In this document: positions 9,092-46,259 of the stretch, in pieces
Numbering within the stretch: the first letter of the stretch is position 1
Layout: each line of letters begins with the position of its first letter
From: Minisyncoccota bacterium
GTDB taxonomy: Bacteria; Patescibacteriota; Minisyncoccia; Phycocordibacterales; UBA6899
Assembly (NCBI GenBank): GCA_035583355.1
Contig: DATEZQ010000011.1
Span: forward strand, 19,648 to 83,647
Length of the DNA stretch: 64,000 nt
Direction: 5' to 3'
Position numbers and translations under genes: made by a program
Notes under the pieces: model-generated
The model's input: only the letters and a program-made list of their open reading frames with translations
Told to the model about the DNA's origin: nothing
The model's database searches: none

Positions 9092-11220
<2,129 letters not shown>

Positions 11221-11221
<1 letters not shown>

Positions 11222-11252
11222 AAAAAGAAGAAGCTTTGCTTCTTCTTTTTTT
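11221..11252 (+). terminator. Rho-independent terminator after gyrB
   Basis: aaaaaagaagaagc-tttg-cttcttcttttttt. Confidence 0.7.
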
Positions 11253-11650
11253 ATGCATCAATATTTGCTTACTTTGTGCTGATGATTACAGCGTCGGTCT
11301 TTTTGTCGGGATTATGCTCTTTTCATTCCGCTTCGCGCTCAATGTATTTTTATACACCTCGCTTGCGATGCTCATTCCAAAGAGCATGCTGCCGACAAAA
11401 ATCCTCGACGTTTCATTGAGTGAAAATATATTTTCCGAAAAAACTAAGTACATTTTTTGTTTTCTCTGGTGACTACTCGAAATAAAATTTGTGAAAAATT
11501 TAAGAGAGAAATTTCAAATCATAAGTTGGAAAAGTTGCAAGGGTTATATTAAAAAATGCAGATGGGAATGAGGGTGATCGGGGAGAAGGAAAAGAAGGAA
11601 AGAGTTAATACAAAAATCGTAATAAAACAAAATATCAAGTACGTCAAGTG

Positions 11651-11847
11651 TGTGGAGTACATTACTAACGTCAGTGATAGAAATGGCCGTTAAGCCATCT
11701 TTTTTGTTAGTGGGGAATACAAGGGGTTTCGGGGAAAAACTGTGGATAACTTTTGCATTTGCAAATGAATAACATGTGGATAAGAAACAAAATAGCGCTC
11801 TGTTCCGCGGTAAAATATAGATATAACACTTGCAGGAGTTATCCACA
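11651..11847. promoter_or_regulatory. DnaA-box cluster in an AT-rich 690-bp intergenic region (candidate oriC or DnaA-regulated promoter)
   Basis: Perfect TTATCCACA boxes at 11741-11749 (rc), 11776-11784 (rc) and 11839-11847. One imperfect box tgtggagta at 11651-11659. A 12-bp perfect palindrome catttgcaaatg at 11756-11767 lies between boxes 1 and 2. A very AT-rich stretch at 11441-11560 could act as a DUE. Confidence 0.5.
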
Positions 11848-12120
11848 CCCACTTGCAACTCGTTATGGAATACACATGGAGGAGTGGCTGCTCCTTTGTG
11901 TAAAATTTAATGAAGCACGAACCGGAAAACAGTGTTGTGCATCTTCCTCGGAGTGGCATAAAACCGCCACCAACAAGGATTATGCAACATGTCTCCTCAC
12001 CGAATGCGAGTGGGGCTGTTCTGCTATCTCAGAGGAAAGCTACTGTATCTGTTGCAGTTCCTCGCACTGCAAACATCCCTGTTTCGCTGCGACCTGCTGA
12101 TTTGACGCTCCAGAGTTTTT

Positions 12121-12165
12121 CTGTTACGCGCGCGCGTACGCACGCGCACGCACACGCGCGAAAAG
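12121..12165. repeat. (CG/CA)n alternating purine-pyrimidine tract
   Basis: ctgttacgcgcgcgcgtacgcacgcgcacgcacacgcgcg. Potential Z-DNA and slipped-strand tract just upstream of the probable start of the secreted-protein gene. Confidence 0.7.
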
Positions 12166-12176
12166 ATGAAGGGGCA

Positions 12177-13877
12177 TTGAGGAGGGTACTTGATGCTGCG
12201 CTTACTGGTGGTGATGTTCGCATTGCTGCGCTCAAGCCTTCGTCTACGCTTACGCGTTTCTTTGCTTGGCTTCTCATTCCTGCGATGCTCATCACTCCAC
12301 TTGTTCCTGCGTACGCGAATGAGGCGCCGCTTGCAGACCGTGTTGCAAGTGATGTTGCTGCAATCGTTGCTGATTCAGCAATCGCAGAAAGTGTTACTGA
12401 GCCTGCTGGGGCTGTTGCTGCTGTCGCTGAGGTCGCTGAAGCAGATGCGCCAAGTGCGACTACTGGCGAAGTGCAAGTTGATACTCCTCCATCTATCCCA
12501 GGTAATGAAACTCCCCTAAGCGAAGAAACAACTGGCGAGAGTTCGGGGACTTCTGGTGACGTAGTCTCTCCTTCAACTCCTGACACCCCGGCAACTGGGG
12601 AAGTGGTGACTGTTGGAGAAGATCAGGTGCCTTCTTCGGGTGGCGCAAGTGCAGATGCTGGTGCGCCTGCTGCTACAAACACGCCGAGCGAAGTTATACC
12701 CGCAGATAGCGATTCGTCAGTAAACACGCCGAGTGAAGTAATCGTTTCGGATAATGATTCTTCTGCAACAACTTCGACGACAACGATTCCTGTGGATGAT
12801 TCTACGCAGACTGATTCGATGGCTTCGACCACTGAGGATGGGGTTACGCCGATCTTTGACATTGCACCTGATGAGGTGATGAGCAATGTTGATGCTATTC
12901 GTGCACGCTTGCGCAATGAAATGCGCGGACAGCTTCGTGATGAGGTTCGTAATGAGGTGAAGCAGGAGGTGCGACGTGAAGTTGAGGAAGAGGTCTATCG
13001 CGGATGTAAAAATCTTGATGGTACTGGCTACTACTGTATTCCTGATGCGAAGAGTTTTGGATCACCGGTTATTGAGAATGAGCGATCGATCGAAGTTGTC
13101 GTGCAGCCTGATCCGATTACTGGAAATAAACAGATCTTCTTGGTGCGCGGAGCTAGTACGATACAGCTCACGCATGGAACAGATGATAATGTTTTCCCTG
13201 TACTTGATCCACTTTCAGATACGCTTGTATGGCAGTCACTGCAAAGTGGTCGTTGGCAAGTTGCCTTTGCACACTTGAGTGATGTTGGTGTGCCGAAGGT
13301 GCAGTATCTCACGAGTGGTGAAAATAATTTTAATCCAAAGATTTATGCGGGCCGCATTGTATGGCAAGCATGGGTTGATGGTAACTGGGAGATATTCACT
13401 GCAATGCCGTCGAAAGATAAAATTCCTGATGAAGCACTTTCGGCTGAACATCGCGCCGCAGGTGTGGGTGGTGATTGGCAGGTGAAACGTATCACCGCAA
13501 ATAGCGCTCCCGACATGTTCCCAACTATTACGGGCGAGACAATCACGTGGCAGGCAGTCGATGGTGGTGTCTGGCAGGTCTTTGCCTATGACATCGCAAC
13601 GAGTGTTGCGCATCGTGTTTCGAAGCCAGGAGTGAAGAGTGATTCACCGAAGGTTGCGCTTGTTTGGAATGAAGAAGATGCAAATGGTCAGATGCGCATG
13701 GTGGGTACGAGTGTCGATGGCTCTGAGTCATTCGATTTCACTGCACTTGCAAGACGTATCGTTGATAATACTAAGGGAGAACCAAAATCTCCTGTTTCGA
13801 ATACGGAAATCGTTGTGGTTACTCCAGTTGCAGTACGCACGGAGTCTGAGGCTTCATCGACACCTCCCGTGAACTAA
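12177..13877 (+). CDS. Secreted protein: signal peptide, acidic Ser/Thr/Asp-rich linker, TolB/PD40-like beta-propeller repeats
   Basis: Signal peptide FFAWLLIPAMLITPLVPAYA|NE. Low-complexity linker. Repeated W-Q motifs (TLVWQSLQSGRWQVAF, GRIVWQAWVDGNWEIFTA, TITWQAVDGGVWQVFAYD) typical of PD40 propeller blades. The ORF-track start at 11910 would put 90 aa ahead of the signal peptide, so I propose the TTG at 12177. The start is uncertain. Confidence 0.5.
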   Translation: MRRVLDAALTGGDVRIAALKPSSTLTRFFAWLLIPAMLITPLVPAYANEAPLADRVASDVAAIVADSAIAESVTEPAGAVAAVAEVAEADAPSATTGEVQVDTPPSIPGNETPLSEETTGESSGTSGDVVSPSTPDTPATGEVVTVGEDQVPSSGGASADAGAPAATNTPSEVIPADSDSSVNTPSEVIVSDNDSSATTSTTTIPVDDSTQTDSMASTTEDGVTPIFDIAPDEVMSNVDAIRARLRNEMRGQLRDEVRNEVKQEVRREVEEEVYRGCKNLDGTGYYCIPDAKSFGSPVIENERSIEVVVQPDPITGNKQIFLVRGASTIQLTHGTDDNVFPVLDPLSDTLVWQSLQSGRWQVAFAHLSDVGVPKVQYLTSGENNFNPKIYAGRIVWQAWVDGNWEIFTAMPSKDKIPDEALSAEHRAAGVGGDWQVKRITANSAPDMFPTITGETITWQAVDGGVWQVFAYDIATSVAHRVSKPGVKSDSPKVALVWNEEDANGQMRMVGTSVDGSESFDFTALARRIVDNTKGEPKSPVSNTEIVVVTPVAVRTESEASSTPPVN

Positions 13878-13879
13878 AC

Positions 13880-16800
13880 ATGATAAGAAATAACGCCTAC
13901 AATCTTTTCGAAAAGACATGCACAATGATGCTCATCATGGCGTTGTTTTTGGTCAGCAGTGGTGGTCCAGAAAGCATGCGGTTTTTTGTTCATCCACTGG
14001 GAGTAAAATCGGCTGAAGCGGCGCAGACGAGCTATGGCAAGGAGTTGCGTACTGCCGAGTTTGTGCTTGGTGGTGGAAGTGATAATGCGTTGCGCGCGAG
14101 TGGAGTTATAGGGTATGCGGGGGCGAGCACCTGGGCAACTACAAAGCCCGCACTGCTTACTGGTGGTGATGTGGTAAAACTTTTGGGTACGGGAATTTCT
14201 GTCATCAACGCACAGCTTGATGTGTCATATGAATTTCCATCCGCGGCTGCCGCGACAGTTTCTGAGAATAAGATTTATCTTGACGTTGAAGGTGCTGCAA
14301 CGCAGGGGAGTAACACTCCTGTCAATGAAGCGAATGGCGCATCTCCACTTGCGGTTATGGCTGGAGGAACAGGATACCTACGTACAATACATGATGTAAC
14401 CAGTTTTTTTGATCGACAGTCTGACGCTACTTGGAATAGTGGTGTGCACGTGATAGCTGCGGTTGCTCCGACGCTTACTGCTGGTAATCGTGCGCTCACG
14501 ACTGCAAAGCTGCTTGTTACGTATGAGGTTGATATCGATCCGGCGATTACACAGCTCGTGAAGACAGTGCGTATTCCGCTTGCATCGAGTGGGGTTGCAG
14601 GAAATACAGGCTCTCGCACTACGGTTTGTGCAGCAGGGGCGACATGTCCTTTCACTTTTGATACTACAGTTATTCGTGATCTTGCTGCTGATGCAGATAT
14701 TCTTGATGCGCATATTGAATTTTTTGCGCAACAAGCAAGTAATGTAAATTCAACATACAGACTTCAGTTCGCAGGCGGCACTGCATCGCCGCTCTATGCT
14801 TGGAATGAGGCAGTTGCAGATACACACAATACACGTGTGCTTTGGGGAGCATTGCCGATCGGCGGGGCGAATCTGCGTGCGCAAACTGCACACACATTGA
14901 ATCTCGTGAACACTGCGGGTGGCGCGCCGCTTTATGCAACGGGTGGTGAGGTAGTGATTACCTATGTATTCAATCCGACTGCTGCAACACAAACAGAGAC
15001 GATTCGTTACTTTGTTGATCAGGAAACAGCATCACCTGGATCGGGAGTGAATGCTGCTATTGCGGGAACGAATGTGGTCATTGCAAATGATGCTCCTGTT
15101 GTGGAAAAGGCATGGTATCGTATGCAGCTTGCCCCAGTGTTCGCTGCGGCAACAACGATGACCGTCACCCATAGTGTGGGTGGGGTAAATGGTACTGCAC
15201 AAGTGTACCAGTTTCCTGCTCCTTCAACAGCGCGAAGAGCTGCAAACACACCCGTGGTGATTCATAGCCTTACTCCCGAAACGCTTTCATTCTCCGCGTC
15301 TACTCCAGTCGGTGGGACGTTTCGCTTTAGCGCAGCGGGTGGATCTCCTGTCGCTATCGAGGTAGTGACGACATTTTCTTGGAGTTATTCAATTTCGAGT
15401 AGTCAGACGAAGACTGCATTGTTTGGTGCATCACTCCCATCGATTGGCCGAAATGTTGGAACTGTCGATAAGGTGCGTCATACGATGCTGTATCTTCCTG
15501 AACGTGCAGCAAAAACATTTGAAGATGGATTTCTTGAGGCGCACTATACACATCATGATGCGTCAGCAATTTCAATTTCAAGTGGTATTCATATAGGTTT
15601 TGGGACTTCGACGACTGCAAATGCCTTGACTGTGACAGAGCTAGGCGGAACAGGGGGAACATATTCATATAGCGCTCGGTTGTATGCGAAGTTTACTTCT
15701 TCAGCTATTGGGTCATCAGTAAATTTGACCAAGCAACGTTATCCGTTTGCGGTTGAAGAGAGCGTTGATGTTGCTGCTGACTTCACCTACTTCGCGAACA
15801 CTGTTGTACTTACTTATACGGTTGCGGCACCACTTGCATATAGTCCACATCCAAAACAGTTGCGTACTGCTGAGTTTTTACTTGGTGGGGGATCTGAACA
15901 GGCGACGCGCGCAACGGGAGTGTATTCGTATGCAGGTGCATCTTGGAATACAACAAAACCTGCAGGAGAATTGATTAAGTTGCTTGGAGATGATGCGGAG
16001 GTCGTGAGTGCGTACGTGGATTTATCTTTCTCTACTACGAACATTGTGGCAGTCACCGGACTCACTGTATTGGGGGATATTACGGGTTCTATAGATAGCG
16101 ATGCAACAAACGTTACGCTTTATACTGCACCGATGAATCAAATTGTGGGTGGAGGAAGTACGGTAACGGGTTATTACCATGCTCAGATTGATGCAACAAG
16201 AATGTTTATTGGACAGTCGAGTGCATCGCTCAATGCGGGAGTGAATTTTGGGATTGGTGTTGCTGCGACAGGTCCAACTCGTGCACTCACTTCTGCAAAA
16301 CTTGTGGTGACCTATGAGAGCACGTACTCACTCAATCCAATGGTAGGAACGAAGACCGTACGTTTCCCACTCGATTCGACAACAGGAACAGATGTCGGCT
16401 CCAAGACTACAACATGCACCACCACAGCTTGCGGATTTACCTATAACGCCGCAATTGGAGATTTGCTCAACAGTGATACTGCGAATATTCTTTCGGTGCA
16501 TGCAGAGATTTCTGCACTTGCGAACTCGGCGGGTGCGGCAGCAGCACGTGCATATACAATTACTATTGCACATTCTCCTGGTTCAAGTGCAACATATAAT
16601 CCCGTTGAGACCGCACTGGACTCAACAGGCCTTCGTCTTATGTGGGGGATGCCTATCGGGGGAAATGACTTTGTAGTGAATACTCCAAGAACGCTTAATA
16701 TCGGTGCGAACACGACAAATGTTCCCCTTGCGCATCTTGGTGGAGAGATCGTCGTGACTTATGCATATTCAAGTCGCTCGACAAATCAATCGGAGACACT

Positions 16801-19249
16801 CGTGTATCCACTTGGGCAACTTGCCGTTGCTCCAGCAGTGGGTGCAACAACAACGATAGGTACTTTTACTCCCGTACTTCCCATGCAGGATGCACAAGTG
16901 CAGCAGATGTGGCTCCGAGTGCGCTATTCACCGCATAGTTCACTTTCTGCAATTATTGAGGGAAGTGTCGGTGCGTCATTACTTGGACGCACTTATGCAG
17001 CAGGGACAATGACTAATCGTGGAGGTGGTGAAACTTATATTCTCCATGATATGACTTCATTGATAGGAGCATATGCCACTTCAGGGACTGCAATTGGTGC
17101 AAAGATAAAATTCGTGACCGCAGCAGTTCCCGCAACTGCAGAATTATTTATCACATATGTTTGGGACGGGAGTCATGGTGGTACGCAAGCGCGTAGCGTT
17201 TCATATGTAGCGCCACAGCAATATGCTCCAAGCACGGCTGTTGCGTCAACAACATATCCTTTTGCAATTGATTTTGCGCGTGATGTGGGGAAGATATTCC
17301 GAGCTGCTCAGCTTGAAACATTTATTGCTCATGGAAACAGTACCACCATTACACGTGGAGGAATTGAAACATCGCTAAACGGAGTTACTACAACACTGAC
17401 CGAAGCAGGCGCAGCAACCTCGTATCCATATAATACCGTGATGGTTGATGGATTTACTGCAACCGATTTGTGGGGTAGCGCGAGCATGCCGAGTAGTACG
17501 GTTGCACTGCAAGTTCGAAATGCGAAGACCACCACAGTGAATTATCTGAACTTTAGTAACGTGCTCACGGTTACTTACGAGGAAATGCAAGCGGTACGAA
17601 GGGCAACATTTATTCAGGCGGGTTTCCGTATATATGCGGACAATGGAGCACTTACGCCTCTTGATTCTTGGTACCCGGGGTATCCGAATCAAATCGGAGA
17701 TGATCAGGAGATGACCGTAGCTAATAGACCGGTCAGAAAGAGTGACAGTGTACGTTTGCGTATCGCACTTGCCGTGAGTACCTCGACAATGCCTATAGAT
17801 GATCGCGCATTTCAATTGCAGTCCGCATTGAAGCCGATTGGTACATCTTGTAGTGCGATTGCGCCTGCATCATGGACTGCGGTAAGTAGTACGGGAGACT
17901 GGTCGGGATACAACAATACAGGTCTTGCAGCGTCAGCGATTATACCGACTCCACTTGTTGCGGTGAGTATTGGACATGTTCCACAACTCTATTCCGAAGA
18001 TGGAATAACGGGCACAAATCCAAATGCTGCGAATGTTAGCGAGACAGGAGATGTCATTGAGTATGATTGGGCATTAAAACGCAATAATGCAGTTAAAGAT
18101 GCTGACTATTGTTTCCGTGTCACTGAAAGTGATGGTACTCCAATTTTTGGATATGACTTCTACCCAGTTATGCGTACTGCGGGGTATACACCAGAAATCG
18201 CGTCTTGGCGTTGGGTGGACAACTATGCAAATGAAGCAGGTTGGCAGTCGTTGCTCGGTGCTGGATTGAATATTGCACCATCGGGGCTTCCAAATAGAAC
18301 TATTATAAAGCTACGTGTTGCTTTGCAGGATGTTGCGAATGAATCCGGAAGTAATGAGCGTTACGCAGTGCAGTGGTCTGAAGATCCAACATTTACAACA
18401 GGGGTATTCTTTGCAGACTTAGAAGGGAATTGTGTTGCAACAAGTACGTTTTGCTATGCAATAGGAATTGGTGCTGATGATACGAGCCTCAGTGTACAGA
18501 CCATAGGTGGTACGGTGCTCGGGAGGCATAATGAAGCAACGAGTTCTTCAACATTCTCTCCTGCAGCAAATAGTCTGACTGAGATGGAATATACACTGAC
18601 TTCACAAAGGCAGCGTACTGGACAGGCATATTACTTCAGGCTTTTTGACGTGAATAGGGGAATACCGTTACTCAAGAGCGCCTCTGTATACCCATCACTT
18701 ACTGCTGAGGGTGCGACGGTCAATGGTCTTGTTAGTGGTGTAAATGCTGGTGTTACTATAGATGGCTTAGTAACAACAGGCACGACAACTGCAACAACTA
18801 CTCCATTCGGAATGTTGACGATGGATACAATTGCAATACTTGCGCACCGCATCAGTATCTCCACAAATGCGATGATGGGTTATCAGGTGAATATGCAAGC
18901 AGAGGGTGATCTTAAGAATTTGTACGGTGAGATCGTTCCGTCAATTGCGGGCGCTCCTAATGCAGCACCGGTCAGTTGGAGTGTTGGTTGTCCAGCGCTG
19001 AGCGTAGGATGTATTGGCTACCATACTTCTGATCATACATTGAGTCCTGACGGTGTACCTGATCGTTTCGCTGCGAGCGATACGTGGGCAGAATTCGCGA
19101 CTTCAACGCCTTCAGAGGTTGGCTATTCTGATCTACCAACTGTAGGGACGGAGCAGTTCGATGTTGTGTATAAAATCGAACCCCATGCAGCTACTCCTCC
19201 AGGGTCTTATCGTACAAATATTTTGTATATAATTACCCCTGTCTATTAA
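13880..19249 (+). CDS. Giant (1789 aa) secreted/surface protein with an internal ~600-aa tandem duplication
   Basis: ATG 2 nt after the upstream stop, suggesting translational coupling. N-terminal hydrophobic segment. Repeat unit KELRTAEFVLGGGSDNALRASGVIGYAGASTW...KLLVTYEVDIDP recurs as KQLRTAEFLLGGGSEQATRATGVYSYAGASWN...KLVVTYESTYSLNP. Thr/Ala/Gly/Val-rich, very few charged residues. Confidence 0.6.
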   Translation: MIRNNAYNLFEKTCTMMLIMALFLVSSGGPESMRFFVHPLGVKSAEAAQTSYGKELRTAEFVLGGGSDNALRASGVIGYAGASTWATTKPALLTGGDVVKLLGTGISVINAQLDVSYEFPSAAAATVSENKIYLDVEGAATQGSNTPVNEANGASPLAVMAGGTGYLRTIHDVTSFFDRQSDATWNSGVHVIAAVAPTLTAGNRALTTAKLLVTYEVDIDPAITQLVKTVRIPLASSGVAGNTGSRTTVCAAGATCPFTFDTTVIRDLAADADILDAHIEFFAQQASNVNSTYRLQFAGGTASPLYAWNEAVADTHNTRVLWGALPIGGANLRAQTAHTLNLVNTAGGAPLYATGGEVVITYVFNPTAATQTETIRYFVDQETASPGSGVNAAIAGTNVVIANDAPVVEKAWYRMQLAPVFAAATTMTVTHSVGGVNGTAQVYQFPAPSTARRAANTPVVIHSLTPETLSFSASTPVGGTFRFSAAGGSPVAIEVVTTFSWSYSISSSQTKTALFGASLPSIGRNVGTVDKVRHTMLYLPERAAKTFEDGFLEAHYTHHDASAISISSGIHIGFGTSTTANALTVTELGGTGGTYSYSARLYAKFTSSAIGSSVNLTKQRYPFAVEESVDVAADFTYFANTVVLTYTVAAPLAYSPHPKQLRTAEFLLGGGSEQATRATGVYSYAGASWNTTKPAGELIKLLGDDAEVVSAYVDLSFSTTNIVAVTGLTVLGDITGSIDSDATNVTLYTAPMNQIVGGGSTVTGYYHAQIDATRMFIGQSSASLNAGVNFGIGVAATGPTRALTSAKLVVTYESTYSLNPMVGTKTVRFPLDSTTGTDVGSKTTTCTTTACGFTYNAAIGDLLNSDTANILSVHAEISALANSAGAAAARAYTITIAHSPGSSATYNPVETALDSTGLRLMWGMPIGGNDFVVNTPRTLNIGANTTNVPLAHLGGEIVVTYAYSSRSTNQSETLVYPLGQLAVAPAVGATTTIGTFTPVLPMQDAQVQQMWLRVRYSPHSSLSAIIEGSVGASLLGRTYAAGTMTNRGGGETYILHDMTSLIGAYATSGTAIGAKIKFVTAAVPATAELFITYVWDGSHGGTQARSVSYVAPQQYAPSTAVASTTYPFAIDFARDVGKIFRAAQLETFIAHGNSTTITRGGIETSLNGVTTTLTEAGAATSYPYNTVMVDGFTATDLWGSASMPSSTVALQVRNAKTTTVNYLNFSNVLTVTYEEMQAVRRATFIQAGFRIYADNGALTPLDSWYPGYPNQIGDDQEMTVANRPVRKSDSVRLRIALAVSTSTMPIDDRAFQLQSALKPIGTSCSAIAPASWTAVSSTGDWSGYNNTGLAASAIIPTPLVAVSIGHVPQLYSEDGITGTNPNAANVSETGDVIEYDWALKRNNAVKDADYCFRVTESDGTPIFGYDFYPVMRTAGYTPEIASWRWVDNYANEAGWQSLLGAGLNIAPSGLPNRTIIKLRVALQDVANESGSNERYAVQWSEDPTFTTGVFFADLEGNCVATSTFCYAIGIGADDTSLSVQTIGGTVLGRHNEATSSSTFSPAANSLTEMEYTLTSQRQRTGQAYYFRLFDVNRGIPLLKSASVYPSLTAEGATVNGLVSGVNAGVTIDGLVTTGTTTATTTPFGMLTMDTIAILAHRISISTNAMMGYQVNMQAEGDLKNLYGEIVPSIAGAPNAAPVSWSVGCPALSVGCIGYHTSDHTLSPDGVPDRFAASDTWAEFATSTPSEVGYSDLPTVGTEQFDVVYKIEPHAATPPGSYRTNILYIITPVY

Positions 19250-19330: not shown

Positions 19331-19424
19331 ATTTCTTAGTCATGGTGGGCAGGCAATAAAATATGAGCGCAATTTCTGTGGAAAAGTAAAAAATATCCAG
19401 TATTTTCAGTGTATAATATAAGTA

Positions 19425-20615
19425 GTGAACACACATTCGCACAAAGCGACGCAGCAACTCTTCGCCCTGTTTTTTGGGTTTTTGATGCTGCCGATTTTCG
19501 CTTTTGCAGCCTCCTTTGAAGTGACTCCAAAGGTTATTGATGTGAAAGGAAAAGTACGCGAGATCAGCCATCATAATTTGACGCTGAAAGCGACTGGCGC
19601 AGGCGTCTCTACACTGTATGTTTGGGTTGTTGATGTTGATCAGGTGAAGGGTGATCTCGCAAAGAGTGATATGAGTGGCATCAATGCAAACTCACTTGAC
19701 GCAAGCCCCTCACGCTGGATCGAAATACCCCGTTCAATCAACTTGCTTCCTAAGGAAGAACAGACGGTACCATTTCAAATGCAAATACCTGCGCGTGCAA
19801 GACCAGGCAATTATCATGTGGCGCTAAAATTCGCATCGGGTCAAACGCAATTTGATGCACAGAAGTGCGAAAGTTGTACTGAACAAGTATTGATGAATAT
19901 CGAAGTCACTGAAGATATTCGAGAGAAGTTACAACTGTTTTCATTTACTGCTGCGAAGAATATTTTTGTTCGACCGAGTGCTGAATTTAGTTTTGCAGTT
20001 GAGAATACAGGTAACCGTGCGCTTGTCCCTAATGGCAAGATACGAATTTTTGATAATACGGGAAAAGAAGTCGGGCTTGTTGATGTAAATGCAGACGGGA
20101 AACAAGTGGAACCAAAAGGCAAAGAGTTATTAGCTGCATCGTGGGCGGCAGGGGGACACTTCGGAAAATATAAAGCCATGCTTGATATGAGTTATGGTCA
20201 ACGTGGTACGATGCAAGACGTCGTATATTTCTGGGTTATTCCTTGGTCAAAGATGCTTGGTTTCGGTTTCACGCTCATTGTGCTCATGGTGCTCTTTATG
20301 TTATTTGCGCGTGGACGAGATCTTGCTCGCCCACAGTATGCATATGCAGAAGCAGTAGAACCTACACCTGCGCAAGAAGCAGAAAGTCAGGTTGAAGAAA
20401 ATGAAATACGCGAGGGCATGCTCAGTCGCATTGCGCGACGCTTTAGGAGGAATGGAAATCGACTCGAGGATGTCATTAACGAGAGCGAATTGAGCAGTCT
20501 CACTGAAGTTAATATCCCTGTGCGTACACGTACTGTTCCTCCTGCACACTATTCCGTGCAGCTCGAACAGAAGGTTCGCGTGGTTCCTGAGAATCATATC
20601 GTGCGCCTCCGCTAG
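19425..20615 (+). CDS. Cell-surface protein, signal peptide plus C-terminal TM anchor (paralog 1 of 3)
   Basis: Signal peptide LMLPIFAFAASFEV. W..IP....L.P...TVPF.MQIPARARPGNYHVALKF block. C-terminal TM GFGFTLIVLMVLFMLFARGR followed by a basic stretch. Architecture resembles the Firmicute DUF916/DUF3324 WxL-locus anchored proteins. That link is hypothesis only. Confidence 0.55.
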   Translation: MNTHSHKATQQLFALFFGFLMLPIFAFAASFEVTPKVIDVKGKVREISHHNLTLKATGAGVSTLYVWVVDVDQVKGDLAKSDMSGINANSLDASPSRWIEIPRSINLLPKEEQTVPFQMQIPARARPGNYHVALKFASGQTQFDAQKCESCTEQVLMNIEVTEDIREKLQLFSFTAAKNIFVRPSAEFSFAVENTGNRALVPNGKIRIFDNTGKEVGLVDVNADGKQVEPKGKELLAASWAAGGHFGKYKAMLDMSYGQRGTMQDVVYFWVIPWSKMLGFGFTLIVLMVLFMLFARGRDLARPQYAYAEAVEPTPAQEAESQVEENEIREGMLSRIARRFRRNGNRLEDVINESELSSLTEVNIPVRTRTVPPAHYSVQLEQKVRVVPENHIVRLR

Positions 20616-20620
20616 TCAAT

Positions 20621-21739
20621 ATGATAGAGAGGCATATTCACAAAAAAATCAGTAAAAAGGCCATACTTTTCGGTATGGTCTTTTGCCTTTTGCTTCCCAG
20701 TACATTGTATGCACAGGAGGAGTTCCATCCGGAAGGTTTTTCGGCTGAACCTGCGATACTTCGTGTCTCCGTGGAAAGAGGAGGGCAGTTTCGCTCGTTC
20801 TTTAGTCTTCTAAATTCAGGTGATACGGCACTTACGCTCGATATTCTTGTCGCTGATTTCGTACCAATAAACAGTACGGGGGGAGTGCAAAAGATGGAAG
20901 GTATCCCTGAGAAGGATGATCCTGTGCGCGCATCGGGTTGGTTTTCAATTCCTGAGGGTCCGCTTATAGTTCCTCCAAGGCAGAAGTTGCGCGTCCCATT
21001 CTCTATTTCGGTCCCTTCAGATGCAAATCCTGGTGGGCGCTCCGTCGTTATTGAGCTTGAAACCAGGGGTGGATCTGCGCGTGAGCGTATGAATATGCTC
21101 AACTTCGTGACTGTGCCAGGAGAAGCGAAGGAGCAGCTCACTATTCTTTCATTTGGACGAGATGCCATAATGACCGCTACTGCACATGGTACCTTTAGTC
21201 TTTTGCTCAAGAATGACGGCGAGACACATTTGCGACCGGAGGGGGAAGTGGTGGTACGTAATATGTTCGGAGTTGAACGTGGCCGTTATTCACTCGAAGG
21301 TCTACTTGCTCCGGGTACTATCATACCCAATGCAAAGCGCAGTGTTGAGTATAAGTGGGTTGGCTCACTGAGTGCATTTGATTTTGGCCTATGGAATGCA
21401 CGCGTTGCGCTGCGTTACGGTGAGGGTGGAGCAAACTCTGTGGGAGACCGTACCTTTTTCCTCGTACTTCCATGGAGGGCATTTCTGCTTATTGTATTTA
21501 TCTTGGGTGGTTCGGTGCGATTCTTTATGTATGCGGTGGCGCGTTTACGAAAAGACCTTGCGCATATTTCCATAGACAATGATGGTGCTGCCGTTGAGAG
21601 AACCGTAAGCGTTCAGTTGCTCATCATTCCGTTTATCGCAGGCCTGTTGTTGCTTGTTGTGGTGACAGGAACAATGTTTTCTCTTCTTTCGGGGAAAAAT
21701 GAGGGGTCATTTGAGCGAGTACAAAAAGTAAATCGATAG
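20621..21739 (+). CDS. Cell-surface protein, signal peptide plus C-terminal TM anchor (paralog 2 of 3)
   Basis: Signal peptide. WFSIPEGPLIVPPRQKLRVPFSISVPSDANPGGRSVVIELE block aligns with paralog 1. C-terminal TM AFLLIVFILGGSVRFFMYAVARLRKD. Confidence 0.55.
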   Translation: MIERHIHKKISKKAILFGMVFCLLLPSTLYAQEEFHPEGFSAEPAILRVSVERGGQFRSFFSLLNSGDTALTLDILVADFVPINSTGGVQKMEGIPEKDDPVRASGWFSIPEGPLIVPPRQKLRVPFSISVPSDANPGGRSVVIELETRGGSARERMNMLNFVTVPGEAKEQLTILSFGRDAIMTATAHGTFSLLLKNDGETHLRPEGEVVVRNMFGVERGRYSLEGLLAPGTIIPNAKRSVEYKWVGSLSAFDFGLWNARVALRYGEGGANSVGDRTFFLVLPWRAFLLIVFILGGSVRFFMYAVARLRKDLAHISIDNDGAAVERTVSVQLLIIPFIAGLLLLVVVTGTMFSLLSGKNEGSFERVQKVNR

Positions 21740-21780
21740 ACGCACAAACTTTCCACAGGTTGTGCGTTTTTTATACAGAG

Positions 21781-22010
21781 TTGTCCACAGTTTTATGCAC
21801 AGTTTATTAACAAATGTAGTATAATTACAGTTAGGAGGCCGTCCTCCACGAGTAAAGATATTCGATGATCTTCTCGTGCGCATAAGAAGCGGGTTTTCCA
21901 CTTTCGGCGTTATTTATAACGCTTATAGCAGCTGTACCACTCGGTACAACTTTTGCGCCCCACTTATACGTTTAAATAGCGTCCCATAACGCTGTTTAGC
22001 AGGTTTTAAA
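21781..22010 (+). promoter_or_regulatory. Conserved promoter plus long 5' leader of surface-protein gene A
   Basis: Shares ordered blocks with the leader of gene B: ttgtccacag, tgtagtataattaca (TATAAT -10-like), taggagg...cctcc hairpin, gcgcataag, gcgggttttccactttc, gtcccataac. Confidence 0.5.
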
Positions 22011-23195
22011 ATGACATATTCACAATCCCTTGCTTTCTTTAGGGAGCAGAAGGCGTTTTCCGCCTTTCTGTCTGTCATTGTGATTATCAGTTCGGTAGGA
22101 GCAGTTTTTGCAACGCAAGTTGCCTCAGCTGCAAACCTTGCTTTTGGAAATGTGACCGATACGATGAGTAACGCTCGCCTTTCAACTGCAGGGACAACGT
22201 ATTACTCAGCACATACATTCAAGTTCACTCCGAAAGTGGACATCACTGGCGGACAAGCGGTGACGTTTACTTTCCGCGCAGACGATGCAAGTATGGGCAG
22301 AGGGAATACAGGTACAAATTTCGATGCAGCATTGATTGATAACCAGGACGTTTCCATTCCAGGAAAGGTCATCGGTTCAAGCTGTGGAGGTGGTGAGAAT
22401 TTCTCATTCACTACTACAGCTACAGTGTTGACGCTGAGTACGTGCCCAGGTAATACCATTGCCTCTACATCACCTTTTGTTGTTACTTTTGGTAGCAGTA
22501 CGAGGAATATGATAAAGACTCCGGCACCTGGTCCAACGTATGATGCGTATAGCTATCAGATCGATATTGCTGGTCCAGCAAGTCAGTTCTCGTCAACGCT
22601 TGTTGCGCTCGTCAGTAATGTACTGGTTTCTGCTTCAGTGGATCCAGTGTTCAACTTCACTATTTCGGGTCTTGCAAGTAGCACTACACGTGATGGAAAG
22701 TTGATCGATATTGATACCTCTACTTCAAGTATCGCTTATGGAGCACTTCCTGTGGGGACACCGGTCACCGCAGCACAAGAGCTTCAGGTGACAACAAATG
22801 CAAAAACGGGCTTCAATGTTACGGTAGTCGCTGATCAACCATTCCAGTCATCAAATGGCTCGGTGATCGATGGCTTCAGTGCAACAGCGGGAGCACCACA
22901 GGCATTTGTTGCGCCTACGGGCATACTTGCAGATGATACGACATGGGGTCACATTGCGTTGTCTACGGATGATGCGAATATTCCCGGCGCTGCAACATTG
23001 AGTGGTGATAAGTGGACGGGAGACTTTGTGCGCGGTATTCCTGTTTCTGTCTTTGGTAATGCTTCGTCAACCGCAGGTGTTGGCGTAGGCTTGGGTACGA
23101 CTACGGTCTTTTATAGAACGCAGATCAGCCCACTTCAAGAGGCGGCAACAGATTACTTCACCAATCTCATCTACGTCGCAACTCCAACGTTCTAG
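22011..23195 (+). CDS. Thr/Ser/Gly/Val-rich secreted surface protein A (S-layer-like or WxL-like)
   Basis: 394 aa. N-terminus MTYSQSLAFFREQKAFSAFLSVIVIISSVGAVFATQVASA (signal). Almost no charged residues. C-terminus FVRGIPVSVFGNASSTAGVGVGLGTTTVFYRTQISPLQEAATDYFTNLIYVATPTF is shared with B. Confidence 0.6.
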   Translation: MTYSQSLAFFREQKAFSAFLSVIVIISSVGAVFATQVASAANLAFGNVTDTMSNARLSTAGTTYYSAHTFKFTPKVDITGGQAVTFTFRADDASMGRGNTGTNFDAALIDNQDVSIPGKVIGSSCGGGENFSFTTTATVLTLSTCPGNTIASTSPFVVTFGSSTRNMIKTPAPGPTYDAYSYQIDIAGPASQFSSTLVALVSNVLVSASVDPVFNFTISGLASSTTRDGKLIDIDTSTSSIAYGALPVGTPVTAAQELQVTTNAKTGFNVTVVADQPFQSSNGSVIDGFSATAGAPQAFVAPTGILADDTTWGHIALSTDDANIPGAATLSGDKWTGDFVRGIPVSVFGNASSTAGVGVGLGTTTVFYRTQISPLQEAATDYFTNLIYVATPTF

Positions 23196-23369
23196 CGATA
23201 ACACCTAAAGAAAGCAAAACGGAGAAAACGCACCATTTATGGAGGCGTATTTTCCGTATTAGGAAAGAATTTGCATTTGCTATTCGGTTATGAAAGGGGG
23301 TATGGGGATAACTTTTTACTGTCAACGAGGTTGTGAGAAGCTTATGCACATCTTGTGCATACTTTTTTA

Positions 23370-23609
23370 TTAGTTGTCCACAGGTTTATCAGCAGGTTGT
23401 TCACATCTGTAGTATAATTACATGTAGGAGGTAATCCTCCGCCAGCTGGTGAAAAAGCCATCTGGGGCGCATAAGTTTGCGGGTTTTCCACTTTCCATAG
23501 CGTCGTCGAAAAACGCTACAGCACTTATGTATTTACGCTTGTAATTACATTTTTGCACCCACGCTTATTCGTCTAAGCGGTGTCCCATAACACTGCTTGT
23601 ATAGTTCTT
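23370..23609 (+). promoter_or_regulatory. Conserved promoter plus long 5' leader of surface-protein gene B
   Basis: Same ordered conserved blocks as the leader of gene A, see 21781-22010. The two proteins' N-termini and C-termini are also conserved. Confidence 0.5.
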
Positions 23610-24785
23610 ATGAATTACACAAAATTGTTTGCTTACTTCAGGGAACAGAAGGCATTTACTGCTTTCCTTAGTGCCTTGATGGTTATTAGTACCGTCTCAG
23701 CAGTATTTGCAGGTCGCTATGCGTCCGCAGCTACTATCGCAATCAGAAATGTAAGCGATACGCTGGACAATGCGCGTATTAGTACGGGTGCAGTCACACA
23801 GTACTCAATACATAAGTTTGTATTTCAGCCAAAGGTTGATATTGCTGAGGGTTCACCCCTTAGTTTCAAGTTCTACCCTAATGCTGATGTTACAAATTTC
23901 GATCTTAGCCTCCTTTCTCTGGGTTCCGATATCGCAGTTGCGGGAAAGACCGTCAACGCCACACTCGGAGCTTGTGGAGCAGCTGACTTTATGGCTACGG
24001 TTGCGGCAGATCAGCTTGATCTGACGCCATGTGTTGGTCATGGAGTAATGTCATCGTCAACTGTATATACAGTTACGATTGGTAGCGCTGCGGGTAATAA
24101 GATCGTGAATCCTCAGCCAACTTCAGCTACAGCAGCGAACTACATGATTGAGCTCTTCAACACTGCAACAACGCAGTCAACACGTATTCGTGTTGCACTC
24201 GTTGAGAATGTTGACGTGACCGCTCAGGTTGATCCAATCTTTGACTTCACTGTTTCTGGTATCGCAAGTACGACGGTTACGTCATACGGTGCTATCACGA
24301 CAGACTCAAGCACATCGACGATCAACTACGGAATTCTCCCAGTAAACGTTGCGCAGACCGCTGCACAAATGCTCCAGGTGAAGACCAATGCACGTCAGGG
24401 CTTCAATGTCACAGTCGTTTCAGACCAGCCATTCCAGTCTCAAAACGGTGCAATCATCGATGGTCTTGCAGCATCGGCTCCGGCAGCGTGGTCAGTTCCA
24501 ACAGCAAATGTAAATGATGACATTACGTGGGGTCATATCGGTGTCTCTTCGGATGATACTGCTATCCCAAATGGTGGCATCTATGCATATGCAGGACAGG
24601 CATATACTGGTGATTTCGTTCGCGGAACAGCAGTATCTATCTTTGGAAATGCATCATCGACCGCAGGTGTTGGTTCAGGAACAGGTACGACAACCGTCTA
24701 CTACAAGACTGAAATCAGCCCACTCCAGGAAGCAGCAACGGATTACCACATGAATCTCATTTACGTGGCAACCCCAACCTTCTAA
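23610..24785 (+). CDS. Paralogous surface protein B
   Basis: Start ATG at 23610 (MNYTKLFAYFREQKAFTAFLSALMVISTVSAVFA) by alignment to A (MTYSQSLAFFREQKAFSAF...). The ORF-track start at 23580 is an upstream TTG. C-terminus ...TTTVYYKTEISPLQEAATDYHMNLIYVATPTF. Confidence 0.6.
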   Translation: MNYTKLFAYFREQKAFTAFLSALMVISTVSAVFAGRYASAATIAIRNVSDTLDNARISTGAVTQYSIHKFVFQPKVDIAEGSPLSFKFYPNADVTNFDLSLLSLGSDIAVAGKTVNATLGACGAADFMATVAADQLDLTPCVGHGVMSSSTVYTVTIGSAAGNKIVNPQPTSATAANYMIELFNTATTQSTRIRVALVENVDVTAQVDPIFDFTVSGIASTTVTSYGAITTDSSTSTINYGILPVNVAQTAAQMLQVKTNARQGFNVTVVSDQPFQSQNGAIIDGLAASAPAAWSVPTANVNDDITWGHIGVSSDDTAIPNGGIYAYAGQAYTGDFVRGTAVSIFGNASSTAGVGSGTGTTTVYYKTEISPLQEAATDYHMNLIYVATPTF

Positions 24786-24802: not shown

Positions 24803-24837
24803 GAAATACACTCCTTTATGGGGGGTGTATTTTTTTC
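24803..24837 (+). terminator. Rho-independent terminator after gene B
   Basis: aaatacactcc-tttatgg-ggggtgtattttttt. Overlaps the ORF-track start of sufB at 24818, so I moved the sufB start to 24863. Confidence 0.55.
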
Positions 24838-42230: not shown

Positions 42231-42284
42231 GGCACGCTACGCGTGCCTTTTTGTTGCAACAATAAAACCGCTTTCGCGGTTTTA
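42231..42284. terminator. Pair of terminator hairpins between convergent genes
   Basis: ggcacgc-tacgc-gtgccttttt and aaaaccgc-tttc-gcggtttt. Confidence 0.5.
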
Positions 42285-43265: not shown

Positions 43266-43368
43266 TGGATATATTATACGTCTTCATATGCCCTCGGGCA
43301 AGTGGAAGAACAATTGGTTAGTTACTTCATGCTGGTACTGTAAAGGGAAGCCTTGGTACAATGTCACT

Positions 43369-44697: not shown

Positions 44698-44708
44698 AAT
44701 ACATACTT

Positions 44709-45917: not shown

Positions 45918-45918
45918 T

Positions 45919-45945
45919 TAAAAATACGGCTCTGCCGTATTTTTA
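45919..45945 (+). terminator. Rho-independent terminator
   Basis: aaaaatacggc-tct-gccgtattttt. Confidence 0.65.
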
Positions 45946-45975
45946 ATTATTCCTTAGCGTATTGTGAGCCGCGGT

Positions 45976-46074: not shown

Positions 46075-46259
46075 ATATCGAGGGTGAGTGGCTTCGAAGC
46101 TAATGCAAAATTCACATTCGAAGACTCATAAAATGCATGGCGGGGGAGTCATGGTTGGGAAATAGCAAGTAAGAAAAGACTTTTTGAGGAGTCGACTGTG
46201 GATAAGATGCAAGCTAATTGCACTTGTATGGTGTATAATAATGTTAATAATCTGCATAT

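Follow-up and report, generated by a model that had tools for sequence, protein, structure and literature searches.

A conserved promoter and structured leader cassette upstream of two Pam-like pilin genes in a Candidatus Paceibacterota genome

Introduction

Messages that encode abundant surface proteins can carry 5′-terminal stem-loop stabilisers or long leaders, as in the E. coli ompA 5′ UTR, the papA mRNA and the leaders of S-layer genes. In the cryIIIA mRNA of B. thuringiensis the STAB-SD element works via free pairing with 16S rRNA, and at the level of DNA, DnaA can act as a transcription factor. To our knowledge, gene regulation in CPR/Patescibacteria is almost entirely uncharted, and 5′-3′ mRNA helices are experimentally documented for only a few bacterial mRNAs. 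In the B. subtilis hbs mRNA, a 5′/3′-UTR helix of ~14 bp modulates how RNase Y cleaves the transcript close to its start (Braun, Durand and Condon 2017, PMC5737220).

The Pam pili were described in 2026 as abundant filaments used for host contact by CPR episymbionts, and both pilins are built into one filament (10.64898/2026.03.03.709456). Among the proteins of Ca. Mycosynbacter amalyticus ranked by abundance, PamA is 2nd and PamB 9th (10.64898/2026.03.03.709456). The terms "promoter", "UTR", "untranslated", "transcription" and "riboswitch" have zero occurrences in the text of the preprint (10.64898/2026.03.03.709456). Here, a promoter and leader cassette is described that precedes each of two Pam-like pilin genes in the window, the 64 kb stretch of DNA that was analysed as a whole.

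The pilin genes and their neighbours

Genes A and B (Table 1) are old tandem paralogs in the Candidatus Paceibacterota genome of an uncultured, ultrasmall CPR bacterium, and their products are distant relatives of the Pam pilins of CPR bacteria. The Pam system (Troman et al. 2026 preprint), whose pilins are PamA/PamB and whose membrane-anchored chaperones are PamC/PamD, is likewise found in CPR bacteria, and it too has in one locus a pair of paralogous pilins that are secreted and contain two beta-sandwich domains each. The lineage is different, Paceibacterota here and Saccharimonadia or Microgenomatia in the case of Pam. Filaments of the Pam type assemble by donor-strand exchange. The C-terminal domain matches the Pam pilin family NF058581 CPR_Pam_pilin_C (NCBIfam), and the match of B covers the full domain (residues 235-391 on 3-148 of 148), however, its score of 23 bits (E = 6.8e-5) is below the curated cut-off of 55, so that B is a distant relative and, by this threshold, not a member of the family. 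The family model search gave zero NF058581 matches for the product of gene A, and matches were found in 14 of 34 homologs with a best E of 1.7e-7.

The AlphaFold2 model of the gene A product (pLDDT 86) features a helix at residues 4-43 followed by two all-beta domains, which is consistent with the Pam layout of a signal peptide, an N-terminal beta-sandwich and a C-terminal Ig-like domain. The Foldseek matches of this model, whose TM-scores are uniformly low, are Ig-like adhesin domains, RbmA and the TasA fibre. The identity between the two proteins is 55-65% in residues 1-80, 25-40% in residues 81-200 and 70-100% in the final 60 residues, and the C-terminal domain is moderately conserved over its entire length; this agrees roughly with the conserved ends and diverged middle reported in an earlier, sequence-only reading of this DNA.

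The products of the two genes upstream each have a signal peptide and, at the C-terminus, a membrane anchor. The model of the 20621-21739 product (pLDDT 82) shows two beta-sandwich domains and C-terminal helices, and its best PDB matches are WxLIP (9e-12) and then CfaA, CsuC, CupB2, FimC and Caf1M. The model points to a WxLIP/chaperone-usher chaperone fold and to a PamC/PamD-like protein. The 19425-20615 product has an equal layout, and chaperone-fold proteins with a C-terminal membrane helix adjoin the pilin genes, as they do in a Pam operon. The products of A and B are secreted surface-filament proteins, probably of very high abundance, and both genes would be highly expressed. The sequence-only reading is supported in expecting surface proteins, which here are secreted, filament-forming and probably very abundant. 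Its comparison with S-layer mRNAs does not carry over to the proteins, which are not S-layer proteins but distant relatives of CPR Pam pilins, with chaperone-like genes upstream.

Table 1. Positions of the genes, predicted signals and predicted RNA elements within the window
Feature	Position	Strand	Remarks
Chaperone-like genes	19425..21739	+	19425-20615 and 20621-21739; signal peptide and C-terminal membrane anchor
Hairpin ACGCACAA / TTGTGCGT, then T-run	21740..21772	+	terminator of upstream chaperone-like gene; first element of the duplicated unit
A-unit box array TTGTCCACA, TTATGCACA, TTATTAACA	21781..21812	+	three tandem 9-mers resembling DnaA boxes
A-unit promoter block TGTAGTATAATTACA	21815..21829	+	invariant; TATAAT -10 at 21820-21825; predicted transcription start 21832/21833
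P1, 5′-terminal hairpin GGAGG-CCGU-CCUCC	21834..21847	+	stem invariant in 12 aligned leaders, kept in L043; loop variable
P2, hairpin of variable sequence	21848..21877	+	covariation ACGAG/CUCGU, ACGAA/UUCGU, ACAAG/CUUGU, CCAG/CUGG
P3 5′ strand GCGCAUAAG	21878..21886	+	pairs with distal CUUAUACGU (21963-21971) or proximal UGCGC (21954-21958)
Block GCGGGUUUUCCACUUUC	21889..21905	+	predicted mostly unpaired, within multi-helix junction
P4 hairpin GGCGUU..AACGCU	21906..21923	+	GGCAUC..GAUGCC in L002A
P5 hairpin GUACC-ACUC-GGUAC	21934..21947	+	GUGCC..GGCAC in L002A; B type longer
P3 3′ strand CUUAUACGU	21963..21971	+	kept in 12/12 aligned leaders
P6 hairpin with invariant motif GUCCCAUAAC (loop CCCAUA and closing pairs)	21973..21998	+	12 nt 5′ of ATG; stem covaries; loop kept in L043
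Gene A	22011..23195	+	Pam-like pilin paralog, 394 aa; N-terminal signal/transmembrane helix, two beta-sandwich domains
A helix 5′ arm UUGCUUUCUUUAGG	22030..22043	+	codons 7-11; I4, 14/14 complementary
A helix 3′ arm CCUAAAGAAAGCAA	23204..23217	+	9 nt past the A stop codon
Hairpin after gene A, ACGGAGAAAACGC..GCGUAUUUUCCGU	23219..23257	+	terminator by eye; not flagged by terminator scan
B-unit copy of upstream hairpin, TATGCACA-TCT-TGTGCATA, then T-run	23343..23368	+	terminator-like in scan; direct repeat D3
B-unit box array TTGTCCACA .. TTATCAGCA .. TTGTTCACA	23374..23405	+	
B-unit promoter block TGTAGTATAATTACA	23408..23422	+	-10 at 23413-23418; predicted transcription start 23425/23426
B leader	23427..23609	+	P1 23427-23440, P2 23442-23465, P3 23466-23475 with 23564-23573, invariant block 23479-23495
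B leader, remaining helices		+	P4 23498-23518, P5 23527-23550, P6 23574-23599
Gene B	23610..24785	+	Pam-like pilin paralog, 391 aa
B helix 5′ arm UUUGCUUACUUCAG	23628..23641	+	
B helix 3′ arm CUGAAGAAAGCAAA	24788..24801	+	13/14 pairs (D8)
Gene B intrinsic terminator	24805..24835	+	

Promoter and box array

A and B are each a separate transcription unit, and the two units share the order terminator hairpin, TTGTCCACA-like boxes, -10 TGTAGTATAAT, a leader of ~180 nt, coding sequence and terminator, with a tandem period of 1590-1593 nt in the repeat search. Alignment confirmed that the blocks named in the sequence-only reading lie in the same order upstream of both genes, AGTTGTCCACAG at 21779 and 23372, TGTAGTATAATTACA at 21815 and 23408, TAGGAGG..CCTCC at 21833-21847 and 23426-23440 followed by GCGCATAAG, GCGGGTTTTCCACTTTC at 21889 and 23479, and GTCCCATAAC at 21981 and 23582. 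The exact 15-mer and 17-mer of the cassette occur twice each in the window, in the A and B units only. The hairpin that opens the A unit, where direct repeat D3 begins, contains a TTTCCACAG box in its loop and is kept in the related loci L001, L002, L039 and L040. The equivalents in L001 and L002 of the hairpin after gene A are followed by U-runs.

The boxes of the A unit have a spacing of 11-12 bp, the last one ends 7 nt 5′ of the -10, and the middle one supplies a weak -35 (TGCACA, 18-nt spacer); in L002A the array reads TTGTCCACA, TTATACACA, TTATTCACA. Boxes of the type T[TAG]TCCACA are intergenic in 8 of 16 cases though intergenic DNA makes up 14% of the bases, and all eight intergenic boxes are located upstream of surface or pilus genes. 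The array is proposed to be a transcription-factor binding site. As for a box-binding factor, the scanned products include no response regulator or other DNA-binding protein. A gene for a histidine-kinase-like ATPase is located at 42282-43265. The 9-mers TTATCCACA, TTGTCCACA and TTATNCACA resemble DnaA-box clusters in forming same-orientation arrays with ~11-bp spacing. Unlike oriC clusters, the boxes are neither at a GC-skew switch nor beside dnaA, and they are found 24-30 bp upstream of surface-protein -10 elements in either orientation. A replication origin at 11.7 kb was ruled out by GC skew, since 31 of 32 bins have a positive value and the sign does not change around the box clusters. 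The scanned products contained no DnaA or DnaN domain.

The transcription start was predicted from the gap of 6-7 nt between TATAAT and the start codon at the apparently leaderless genes of this genome, and the promoter consensus thereby suggests both the start and the existence of a 5′ UTR at A and B. A second promoter beside the ATG is unlikely; B has a TATAGT 4 nt upstream, closer than the 6-7 nt of leaderless genes, and A has none. A Shine-Dalgarno sequence was found in 4 of 47 genes and several genes have a TATAAT 6-7 nt before the start codon, and the genes of this genome appear to be mostly leaderless or without a Shine-Dalgarno sequence, so that the long leader of A and B is exceptional here. 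The ATG regions of A and B are AU-rich and have no Shine-Dalgarno sequence. A literature search on leaderless translation in Patescibacteria found nothing.

The leader and its conservation

Measured from the -10 to the ATG, the leaders would be ~178 nt (A) and ~184 nt (B) long, and 165-205 nt overall. The conserved promoter and the long, structured leader of the sequence-only reading, predicted to be transcribed, are supported. The leader folds into six helices, P1-P6, and the same architecture was obtained from independent MFE folds of 12 leaders (z = -3.5 and -4.4). P1 starts 1-2 nt 3′ of the transcription start that the -10 spacing predicts, and its GGAGG is paired with CCUCC in the MFE folds of 12 of 12 aligned leaders and in the consensus structure. 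This hairpin had been suggested to sequester a Shine-Dalgarno-like sequence. The hairpin exists, but it does not sequester the ribosome-binding site of the gene, because it forms where the mRNA is predicted to begin and is separated by ~175 nt from an ATG that has no Shine-Dalgarno sequence. The GGAGG resembles STAB-SD in being near the 5′ end and far from a start codon that it does not serve, however, pairing to the invariant CCUCC makes it inaccessible, unlike STAB-SD. The block GCGGGUUUUCCACUUUC is invariant except for its third base, which changes from G to A in L039A and L040A.

Several other features of the leader were considered and rejected. The upstream open reading frame MIFSCA is present in only some A leaders, and no start codon is found at Shine-Dalgarno distance after GGAGG. 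Antisense open reading frames do not account for the leader, where the conserved blocks and covarying stems represent non-codon-like conservation. Complementarity between a leader block and the A coding sequence (I6, 13/14) is absent in B and is within chance expectation.

Most orthologs have leader identities of 80-89% and promoter identities of 80-94%, with A leaders going down to 66% against L039/L040, and the identity of four-fold degenerate sites is 37-64%. Paralogs within one genome have leader identities of 62-67% and four-fold identities of 37-42%. Between A and B the promoters are 75-79% identical and the leader blocks 100% identical, while the four-fold sites are saturated at 37-42%. 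Since the four-fold sites are saturated (37-53% identical) while the leaders are conserved, the leaders are under selection and their similarity is not that of a recent duplication, the explanation against which the sequence-only reading had set its own. The A leaders cluster with each other across genomes, as do the B leaders, and this grouping by type and not by genome indicates that gene conversion is not the cause.

Aligning and folding the leaders showed that the six-helix architecture is shared and is supported by covariation. The 32 pairs are 93.7% paired versus 37-55% with slid partners, and compensatory changes occur at 8 pairs. The covariation score is 0.232, versus at most 0.10 for slid partners, and 0 of 500 shuffles reached it. 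As the leaders number 13 and come from ~7 closely related genomes, the covariation counts are few and phylogenetically clustered. P1 and most of P3 give no covariation support because they never vary. A stem that does not vary is more in keeping with recognition of its sequence than with a stabiliser that is purely structural, and the single strands, also invariant, point to a specific ligand or partner, which would be superfluous in a pure stability model.

Pairing between the ends of the genes

The 5′ coding region can pair over 10-14 bp with the 3′ UTR directly past the stop codon. The pairing is 14/14 in A, 13/14 in B, 10/10 in L010, 9/9 in L004 and 10/10 including one G.U in L006, and the single A.A mismatch in B is kept in 5 of 5 compared B orthologs. 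The helix sequences are different among A, B, L010, L004 and L006, and the differences include compensatory changes as well as a G.U pair. Helix scores were 23-34 in 13 of the first 14 homologs tested and 20 or less in 30 control genes. The helix scored no better than shuffled controls in L008, L043 and L044, and a gapped version was read by eye in L044, where the ungapped score is not significant.

These helices resemble that of hbs in being long-range and intramolecular, in joining the 5′ region to the 3′ UTR of the mRNA of a highly abundant protein, and in combining at least 10 bp of complementarity with compensatory change. They differ from it in the position of the 5′ arm, which is inside the coding sequence (codons 7-11 or 11-15) and not in the 5′ UTR. 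The helix cannot persist on a heavily translated mRNA because it overlaps regions covered by initiating and terminating ribosomes. Neither this pairing nor the box array upstream of the -10 was part of the sequence-only reading.

Distribution

The cassette is restricted to pilin genes. In L001, L002, L039 and L040 it precedes the orthologs of both A and B, in L042 it precedes B, and L010 and L043 have it in front of a single homolog each. In all, 13 leaders from ~7 related genomes carry it. A covariance model (R1) recovered only the 12 aligned leaders in 147 kb and a diverged 13th leader in L043 (E = 2e-8), with no additional copy in the window, upstream of other genes or upstream of distant homologs. 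At gathering thresholds, Rfam finds only one tRNA in the window, and at E up to 10 the region 21700-23700 gives only two chance microRNA matches. In the Rfam search that had been suggested, the leader thus matches no family.

A search of public contigs (genome_contigs and metagenome_contigs) with the pattern GCGCATAN{3,8}GCGGGTTTTCCAC returned one true locus, L020, which is from the same genome as L002; the other 26 matches are due to chance and nearly all are in high-GC contigs. Since one true locus was returned, the cassette is rare or poorly sampled in these two collections, and further copies were obtained via exact-protein look-ups. Long structured leaders (z = -4.8 and -3.1) also precede more distant pilin homologs, and there too a GGAGG is located close to the predicted 5′ end.

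Discussion

The best explanation, with a probability of roughly 0.6, is that the cassette serves post-transcriptional expression, by mRNA stability and translation control, for the coordinated synthesis of abundant pilins. Each Pam-like pilin gene would be a self-contained and strongly expressed transcription unit in which transcription begins ~7 nt past the invariant TATAAT, and a factor bound to the TTGTCCACA-type boxes probably helps initiation and stands in for a good -35. The 5′ UTR would then form a scaffold that consists of P1, P2, a junction closed by P3 that contains P4, P5 and the invariant pyrimidine-rich single strand, and P6 before the ATG. P1 and the 5′-3′ helix may shield the mRNA from RNases that attack its 5′ end or cut in the early coding sequence, and the exposed invariant strands may dock the ribosome or a regulatory protein. 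In this way the two major subunits of one pilus would be made from co-regulated mRNAs that last long and are translated efficiently. The leader is similar to those of ompA, papA and S-layer genes in that a 5′ UTR predicted to be long and structured precedes the gene of a probably very abundant extracellular structural protein, for which the assembly genes need far lower expression; its first hairpin would be at the 5′ end of the mRNA or 1-2 nt from it. It differs from them in having no sequence or structural homology and in belonging to a host that appears mostly leaderless and poor in Shine-Dalgarno sequences, and unlike passive stabilisers it has invariant single strands. It is possible, if doubtful, that the leader represents an undescribed cis-regulatory RNA specific to CPR pilin mRNAs, which binds a dedicated factor via two exposed UYCCAY motifs, forms with the 5′-3′ helix a closed-loop mRNA whose translation and decay are thereby tied to the assembly of the pilus or to a cell-state signal, and has a dedicated internal translation start on a long leader.

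An unlikely alternative function is that of a sensor, a riboswitch or protein-binding attenuator in which a ligand or protein (a small molecule, unassembled pilin, a chaperone or a global regulator) shifts the fold between the two P3 pairings, with P6 acting as a weak terminator or as a gate of the ATG region so that pilin synthesis tracks the signal. The two mutually exclusive pairings of GCGCAUAAG are both conserved, which hints at a switch; GCGCA:UGCGC and GCGCAUAAG:CUUAUNCG are each the best predicted fold in different orthologs, however, neither has its own covariation support, L039A/L040A have a weakened distal pairing and L010 lacks the proximal one. The stems on either side of the unpaired GCGGGUUUUCCACUUUC and UCCCAUAA covary, whereas these two segments themselves do not vary, and two UCCCAU/UUCCAC-type motifs are exposed, with UCCCAU at both sites in L043, but the leader matches no known riboswitch in Rfam. 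P6 of the B type scored terminator-like, whereas the A type is without a proper U-tract, and there is no Shine-Dalgarno sequence to sequester. It is distinctly improbable that the invariant segments act as DNA, with GGAGG-N4-CCTCC as a palindromic operator at the transcription start, TTTTCCAC in the leader as an extra box for the factor of the TTGTCCACA array and the RNA structure being secondary. The P1 arms are invariant around a variable loop, as in an operator, the enriched intergenic boxes are of the same type and the leader block includes TTTTCCAC, but the compensatory changes in P2, P4, P5 and P6 indicate selection on RNA pairing and the conservation of the 17-nt block extends well past the 9-mer box, so that some elements can be explained in this way and the leader as a whole cannot.

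Phase or antigenic variation of the pilins by recombination at inverted repeats around each coding sequence and around the B promoter-leader is very improbable. A 14-bp perfect inverted repeat (I4) surrounds the A coding sequence, and the A 3′ arm and B 5′ arm, which are inverted and match at 12 of 14 positions, bracket the B promoter and leader. Set against this, all independent assemblies fetched are collinear, the neighbours scanned (part of the genes) contain no recombinase domain, and the conserved A.A mismatch in five B orthologs and the G.U in L006 suit an RNA helix and not repeats homogenised by recombination. The sequence-only reading had seen a hint of antigenic or functional alternation, which is not borne out; A and B are retained as orthologous pairs in at least 4 genomes with no sign of gene conversion or inversion, and published Pam pili contain both pilins in one filament, so that co-expression is a better fit than alternation. 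The chance that the similarity has no function and simply remains from a tandem duplication of recent date, or is kept up by gene conversion, is negligible; the units are in tandem with a period of ~1590 nt, but the saturated four-fold sites next to identical leader blocks, the A/B pairs that are orthologous in at least 4 genomes and the grouping of leaders by type all stand against it.

Because the host genome appears to be largely leaderless, the cassette also raises the question of how ribosomes would initiate at an internal site, behind a leader of 180 nt and with no Shine-Dalgarno sequence to guide them. The cassette would provide a concrete regulatory module for Pam-like pili in CPR bacteria, and its box, which also marks the promoters of other surface-protein genes in the window, points to a small surface regulon.

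Genes A and B and their genomic context

The window is part of a metagenome-assembled genome assigned to Candidatus Paceibacterota (CPR/Patescibacteria). VJ579_04320 and protein A are 100% identical, protein B is VJ579_04325, and neither has a Pfam match. Protein B covers the whole of the NCBIfam domain CPR_Pam_pilin_C (E = 6.8e-5, 23 bits, below the 55-bit cut-off), which is matched by 14 of 34 members of the A/B family. The AlphaFold2 model of A (pLDDT 86) has two beta-sandwich domains after an N-terminal helix, and its Foldseek matches include Ig-like adhesin domains, RbmA, and the TasA fibre. The products of the two genes located 5' of A carry a signal peptide and a C-terminal membrane anchor, and the second, as modelled (pLDDT 82), resembles WxLIP and the chaperone-usher chaperones CfaA, CsuC, CupB2, FimC, and Caf1M. 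This layout is that of the Pam pilus of Ca. Mycosynbacter amalyticus, in which the two pilins rank 2nd and 9th in protein abundance and are built together into one filament, and the chaperones bear C-terminal membrane helices (10.64898/2026.03.03.709456). The words 'promoter', 'UTR', 'untranslated', 'transcription', and 'riboswitch' are absent from the text of that paper. Based on the domain match, the models, the chaperone-like neighbours, and the layout, A and B are treated as distant Pam-like pilins and not as S-layer proteins.

Further 5' of the chaperone-like genes are genes for a giant 1789-aa protein without a family match and for a beta-propeller-repeat protein of 655 aa. Both are syntenic in two related loci (L001 and L002), and their products may serve the pilus as tip or adhesin components.

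Positions of the features in the window, or in the related locus where one is named
Feature	Position	Remark
gyrB	9095-11221	
Intergenic region	11222-11909	690 nt
Possible 45-codon ORF and its hairpin	11556-11706	ATG 11556, TAA 11691-11693
TTATCCACA boxes	11741-, 11775-, 11839+	perfect
655-aa protein gene	11910-13877	first surface-cluster gene
1789-aa protein gene	13880-19249	
TT[AT]TCCACAG box	19376-19385 (-)	
Chaperone-like genes	19425-20615, 20621-21739	
Predicted transcription starts	21832/21833 (A), 23425/23426 (B)	
GCGGGUUUUCCACUUUC region, A leader	21897-21910	
Gene A	22011-23195	
Signal-peptide motif	22029-22055 (A), 23628-23654 (B)	
Long-range helix arms, A	22030-22043, 23204-23217	
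ACTCCGAAAGTGGA	22227-22240	A coding sequence
Gene B	23610-24785	
TATAAT near start codon	19412-19427, 40032, 43265-, 62979-	examples
Second surface cluster	43288-53319	
TT[AT]TCCACAG box	46196-46205 (-)	first gene of its cluster at 46260
Second leader family	L004 4790-5000, L006 4779-5000, L044 2260-2500	upstream of pilin homologs

Conservation of the cassette

A repeat search revealed a tandem period of 1590-1593 nt. Each unit opens with a hairpin and its T-run, continues through arrayed TTGTCCACA-type 9-mers to the block TGTAGTATAATTACA, and has a ~180-nt leader before its coding sequence. A short 3' UTR and a terminator close it; the terminator was flagged by a terminator scan in B, whereas in A it is only a hairpin read by eye. 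Alignment of the two upstream regions recovered all of the blocks named from sequence, in unchanged order, and the 15-mer TGTAGTATAATTACA and 17-mer GCGGGUUUUCCACUUUC each occur at only two sites in 64 kb, upstream of A and B.

Both genes were recovered in synteny from four other genomes (L001, L002, L039, and L040); L042 supplied a B gene plus its leader, L010 one homolog with the leader's 5' half, and L043 a more diverged copy, for a sample of 13 leaders from ~7 related genomes. Orthologs are 37-64% identical at four-fold sites, 80-94% in the promoter, and 80-89% in the leader for most pairs (66% for A leaders against L039/L040). Within one genome, A and B are 37-42% identical at four-fold sites, 62-67% in the leader, and 75-79% in the promoter. 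A recent duplication with uniform identity, named at the outset as a competing explanation, is therefore practically dismissed, since four-fold sites fall far below the leader and promoter. Gene conversion is ruled out because leaders cluster by type (A with A, B with B) across genomes and A-to-B leader identity inside one genome does not exceed that across genomes. These comparisons indicate that the cassette is conserved by selection.

Promoters and upstream boxes

A promoter scan of A found TGCACA, an 18-nt spacer, and TATAAT; the scan of B did not find an acceptable -35. The genome appears largely leaderless or Shine-Dalgarno-poor: a Shine-Dalgarno motif precedes only 4 of 47 long ORFs in the window, and several genes look leaderless because TATAAT lies 6-7 nt 5' of the start codon. 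Applying this spacing to A and B places the predicted transcription starts 1-2 nt before P1, the first leader helix, so that a ~180-nt leader would be exceptional in this genome. The ATG of the leader is without a Shine-Dalgarno sequence.

The 9-mers 5' of A (TTGTCCACA, TTATGCACA, and TTATTAACA) and L002A (TTGTCCACA, TTATACACA, and TTATTCACA) look like DnaA boxes and recur every 11-12 bp. T[TAG]TCCACA occurs 16 times in the window, 8 of them in intergenic DNA (14% of bases), and all eight are upstream of surface or pilus genes (three at 11910, one at 19425, two at A, one at B, and one at 46260), 24-30 bp from a -10 in either orientation. A replication origin was rejected since GC skew is positive in 31 of 32 bins with no switch near the boxes, which are read as putative transcription-factor sites.

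The region between gyrB and the surface cluster, which contains three perfect TTATCCACA boxes and no GC-skew switch, looks like a regulatory region of that cluster rather than an origin. It also holds a possible leaderless ORF with TATATT 5 nt upstream, which ends in an intrinsic-terminator-like hairpin (ATGGC..GCCAT, then a T-run). Reverse-orientation TT[AT]TCCACAG boxes lie 24-28 nt 5' of the TGTATAAT promoters of the chaperone-like gene at 19425 and the first gene of the second surface cluster; the common box suggests a shared surface-protein regulon.

Structure of the leader RNA

RNAalifold and separate folds of 12 aligned leaders gave one common architecture of six helices (P1-P6), including the GGAGG/CCUCC hairpin anticipated from sequence. 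This hairpin (P1) lies at the predicted 5' end, P2 is a hairpin of variable sequence, and P3 (GCGCAUAAG with CUUAUNCG) closes a junction containing the block GCGGGUUUUCCACUUUC, P4, and P5. GCGGGUUUUCCACUUUC is invariant apart from one base in L039A/L040A, and P6 bears the invariant motif GUCCCAUAAC 12-20 nt 5' of the ATG. Single-sequence fold z-scores are -3.5 (A) and -4.4 (B). Over 32 pairs, 93.7% of cells pair, versus 37-55% with slid partners; compensatory changes occur in 8 pairs versus 1-5, and the covariation score of 0.232 (<=0.10 for slid partners) was reached by 0 of 500 shuffles. P2, P4, and P6 carry this support, and inspection of the alignment adds P5; P1 is without variation and P3 changes mostly on one side. 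On this evidence the leader is a structured RNA under purifying selection, with helices backed by covariation.

No Rfam family corresponds to the leader. R1, a covariance model derived from the alignment, had no hits in 147 kb (window plus loci) beyond the 12 aligned leaders. It also detects the L043 leader (E = 2e-8), in which box, -10, P1, and P6 loop are retained and a second UCCCAU stands in place of the UUCCAC of other leaders. A 13/14 complementarity between the GCGGGUUUUCCACUUUC region and ACTCCGAAAGTGGA in the A coding sequence was rejected as a pairing: it is missing in B and within chance expectation.

Long-range pairing and distant homologs

In A, nt 20-33 of the coding sequence (UUGCUUUCUUUAGG) are perfectly complementary to CCUAAAGAAAGCAA, 9 nt past the stop codon. 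The equivalent B helix (UUUGCUUACUUCAG with CUGAAGAAAGCAAA) differs from that of A by a U-A to C-G exchange and has one A.A mismatch conserved in 5 of 5 B orthologs compared. Helices are also found in L010 (UUGCUUUUCU with AGAAAAGCAA), L004 (ACUCCAAGC with GCUUGGAGU), L006 (AGGCUGUUGC with GCAACAGUCU, one G.U), and, gapped and read by eye, L044 (AGCCUA-U-UGC with GCA-CA-UAGGCU). In L004, L006, and L044 the arm sequences are unrelated and the codons homologous. Of the first 14 homologs tested, 13 have helix scores of 23-34, versus <=20 in 30 control genes; scores for L008, L043, and L044 are not above shuffled controls. Inverted repeats could also serve DNA inversion, which is very improbable here: the G.U pair and the conserved mismatch suit an RNA helix better than repeats used in recombination. 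The helix would account for part of the nucleotide conservation in the first 20 codons seen in the sequence-only reading. The closest documented case is the B. subtilis hbs mRNA, where a 14-bp 5'/3'-UTR interaction modulates RNase Y cleavage (PMC5737220). The signal-peptide N-region motif F(F/Y)REQKAF(S/T)AFL, conserved in A, B, L010, and L043, overlaps the 5' arm, so peptide and RNA constraints are superimposed there.

L004, L006, and L044 carry pilin homologs among cohesin/dockerin genes, with leaders of 200-250 nt that have their own conserved blocks (TACAATGA..GGAGGT..CAGCCG..GTGGAGAC..CAACGTA) and were undetected by R1; fold z-scores are -4.8 (L004) and -3.1 (L006). Long leaders are, on these comparisons, a likely trait of the pilin family. 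The fuller blocks of this second leader family (TACAATGA, GGAGGT, CAGCCG.G, GTGGAGAC, and TAAT.CAACGTA.AG) are unrelated to the A/B leaders. The second surface cluster of the window (an ABC ATPase, a MacB/FtsX permease, 632-aa, 363-aa, and 331-aa proteins, a 397-aa dockerin-like protein, and a 595-aa OmpL47-like protein) resembles the surroundings of the L004/L006 homologs, but is without a pilin gene.

Interpretation

The leader could instead be a sensing mechanism, and its invariant strands and alternative P3 pairings are consistent with this; GCGCA can pair with a nearer conserved UGCGC, and in four A-type leaders the best predicted fold has this pairing. Sensing is nevertheless considered unlikely. 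DNA-level operators, which may account for P1 and the internal TTTTCCAC, are less probable still. The covariation-supported leader is restricted to pilin genes in a Pam-like context. Of the readings considered, a post-transcriptional expression cassette has the best support. In this model, a strong, factor-assisted promoter would drive each pilin gene, and the RNA scaffold of the leader would protect the message and recruit the translation machinery or a regulator. Both subunits of one pilus would then be made abundantly and in matched amounts.
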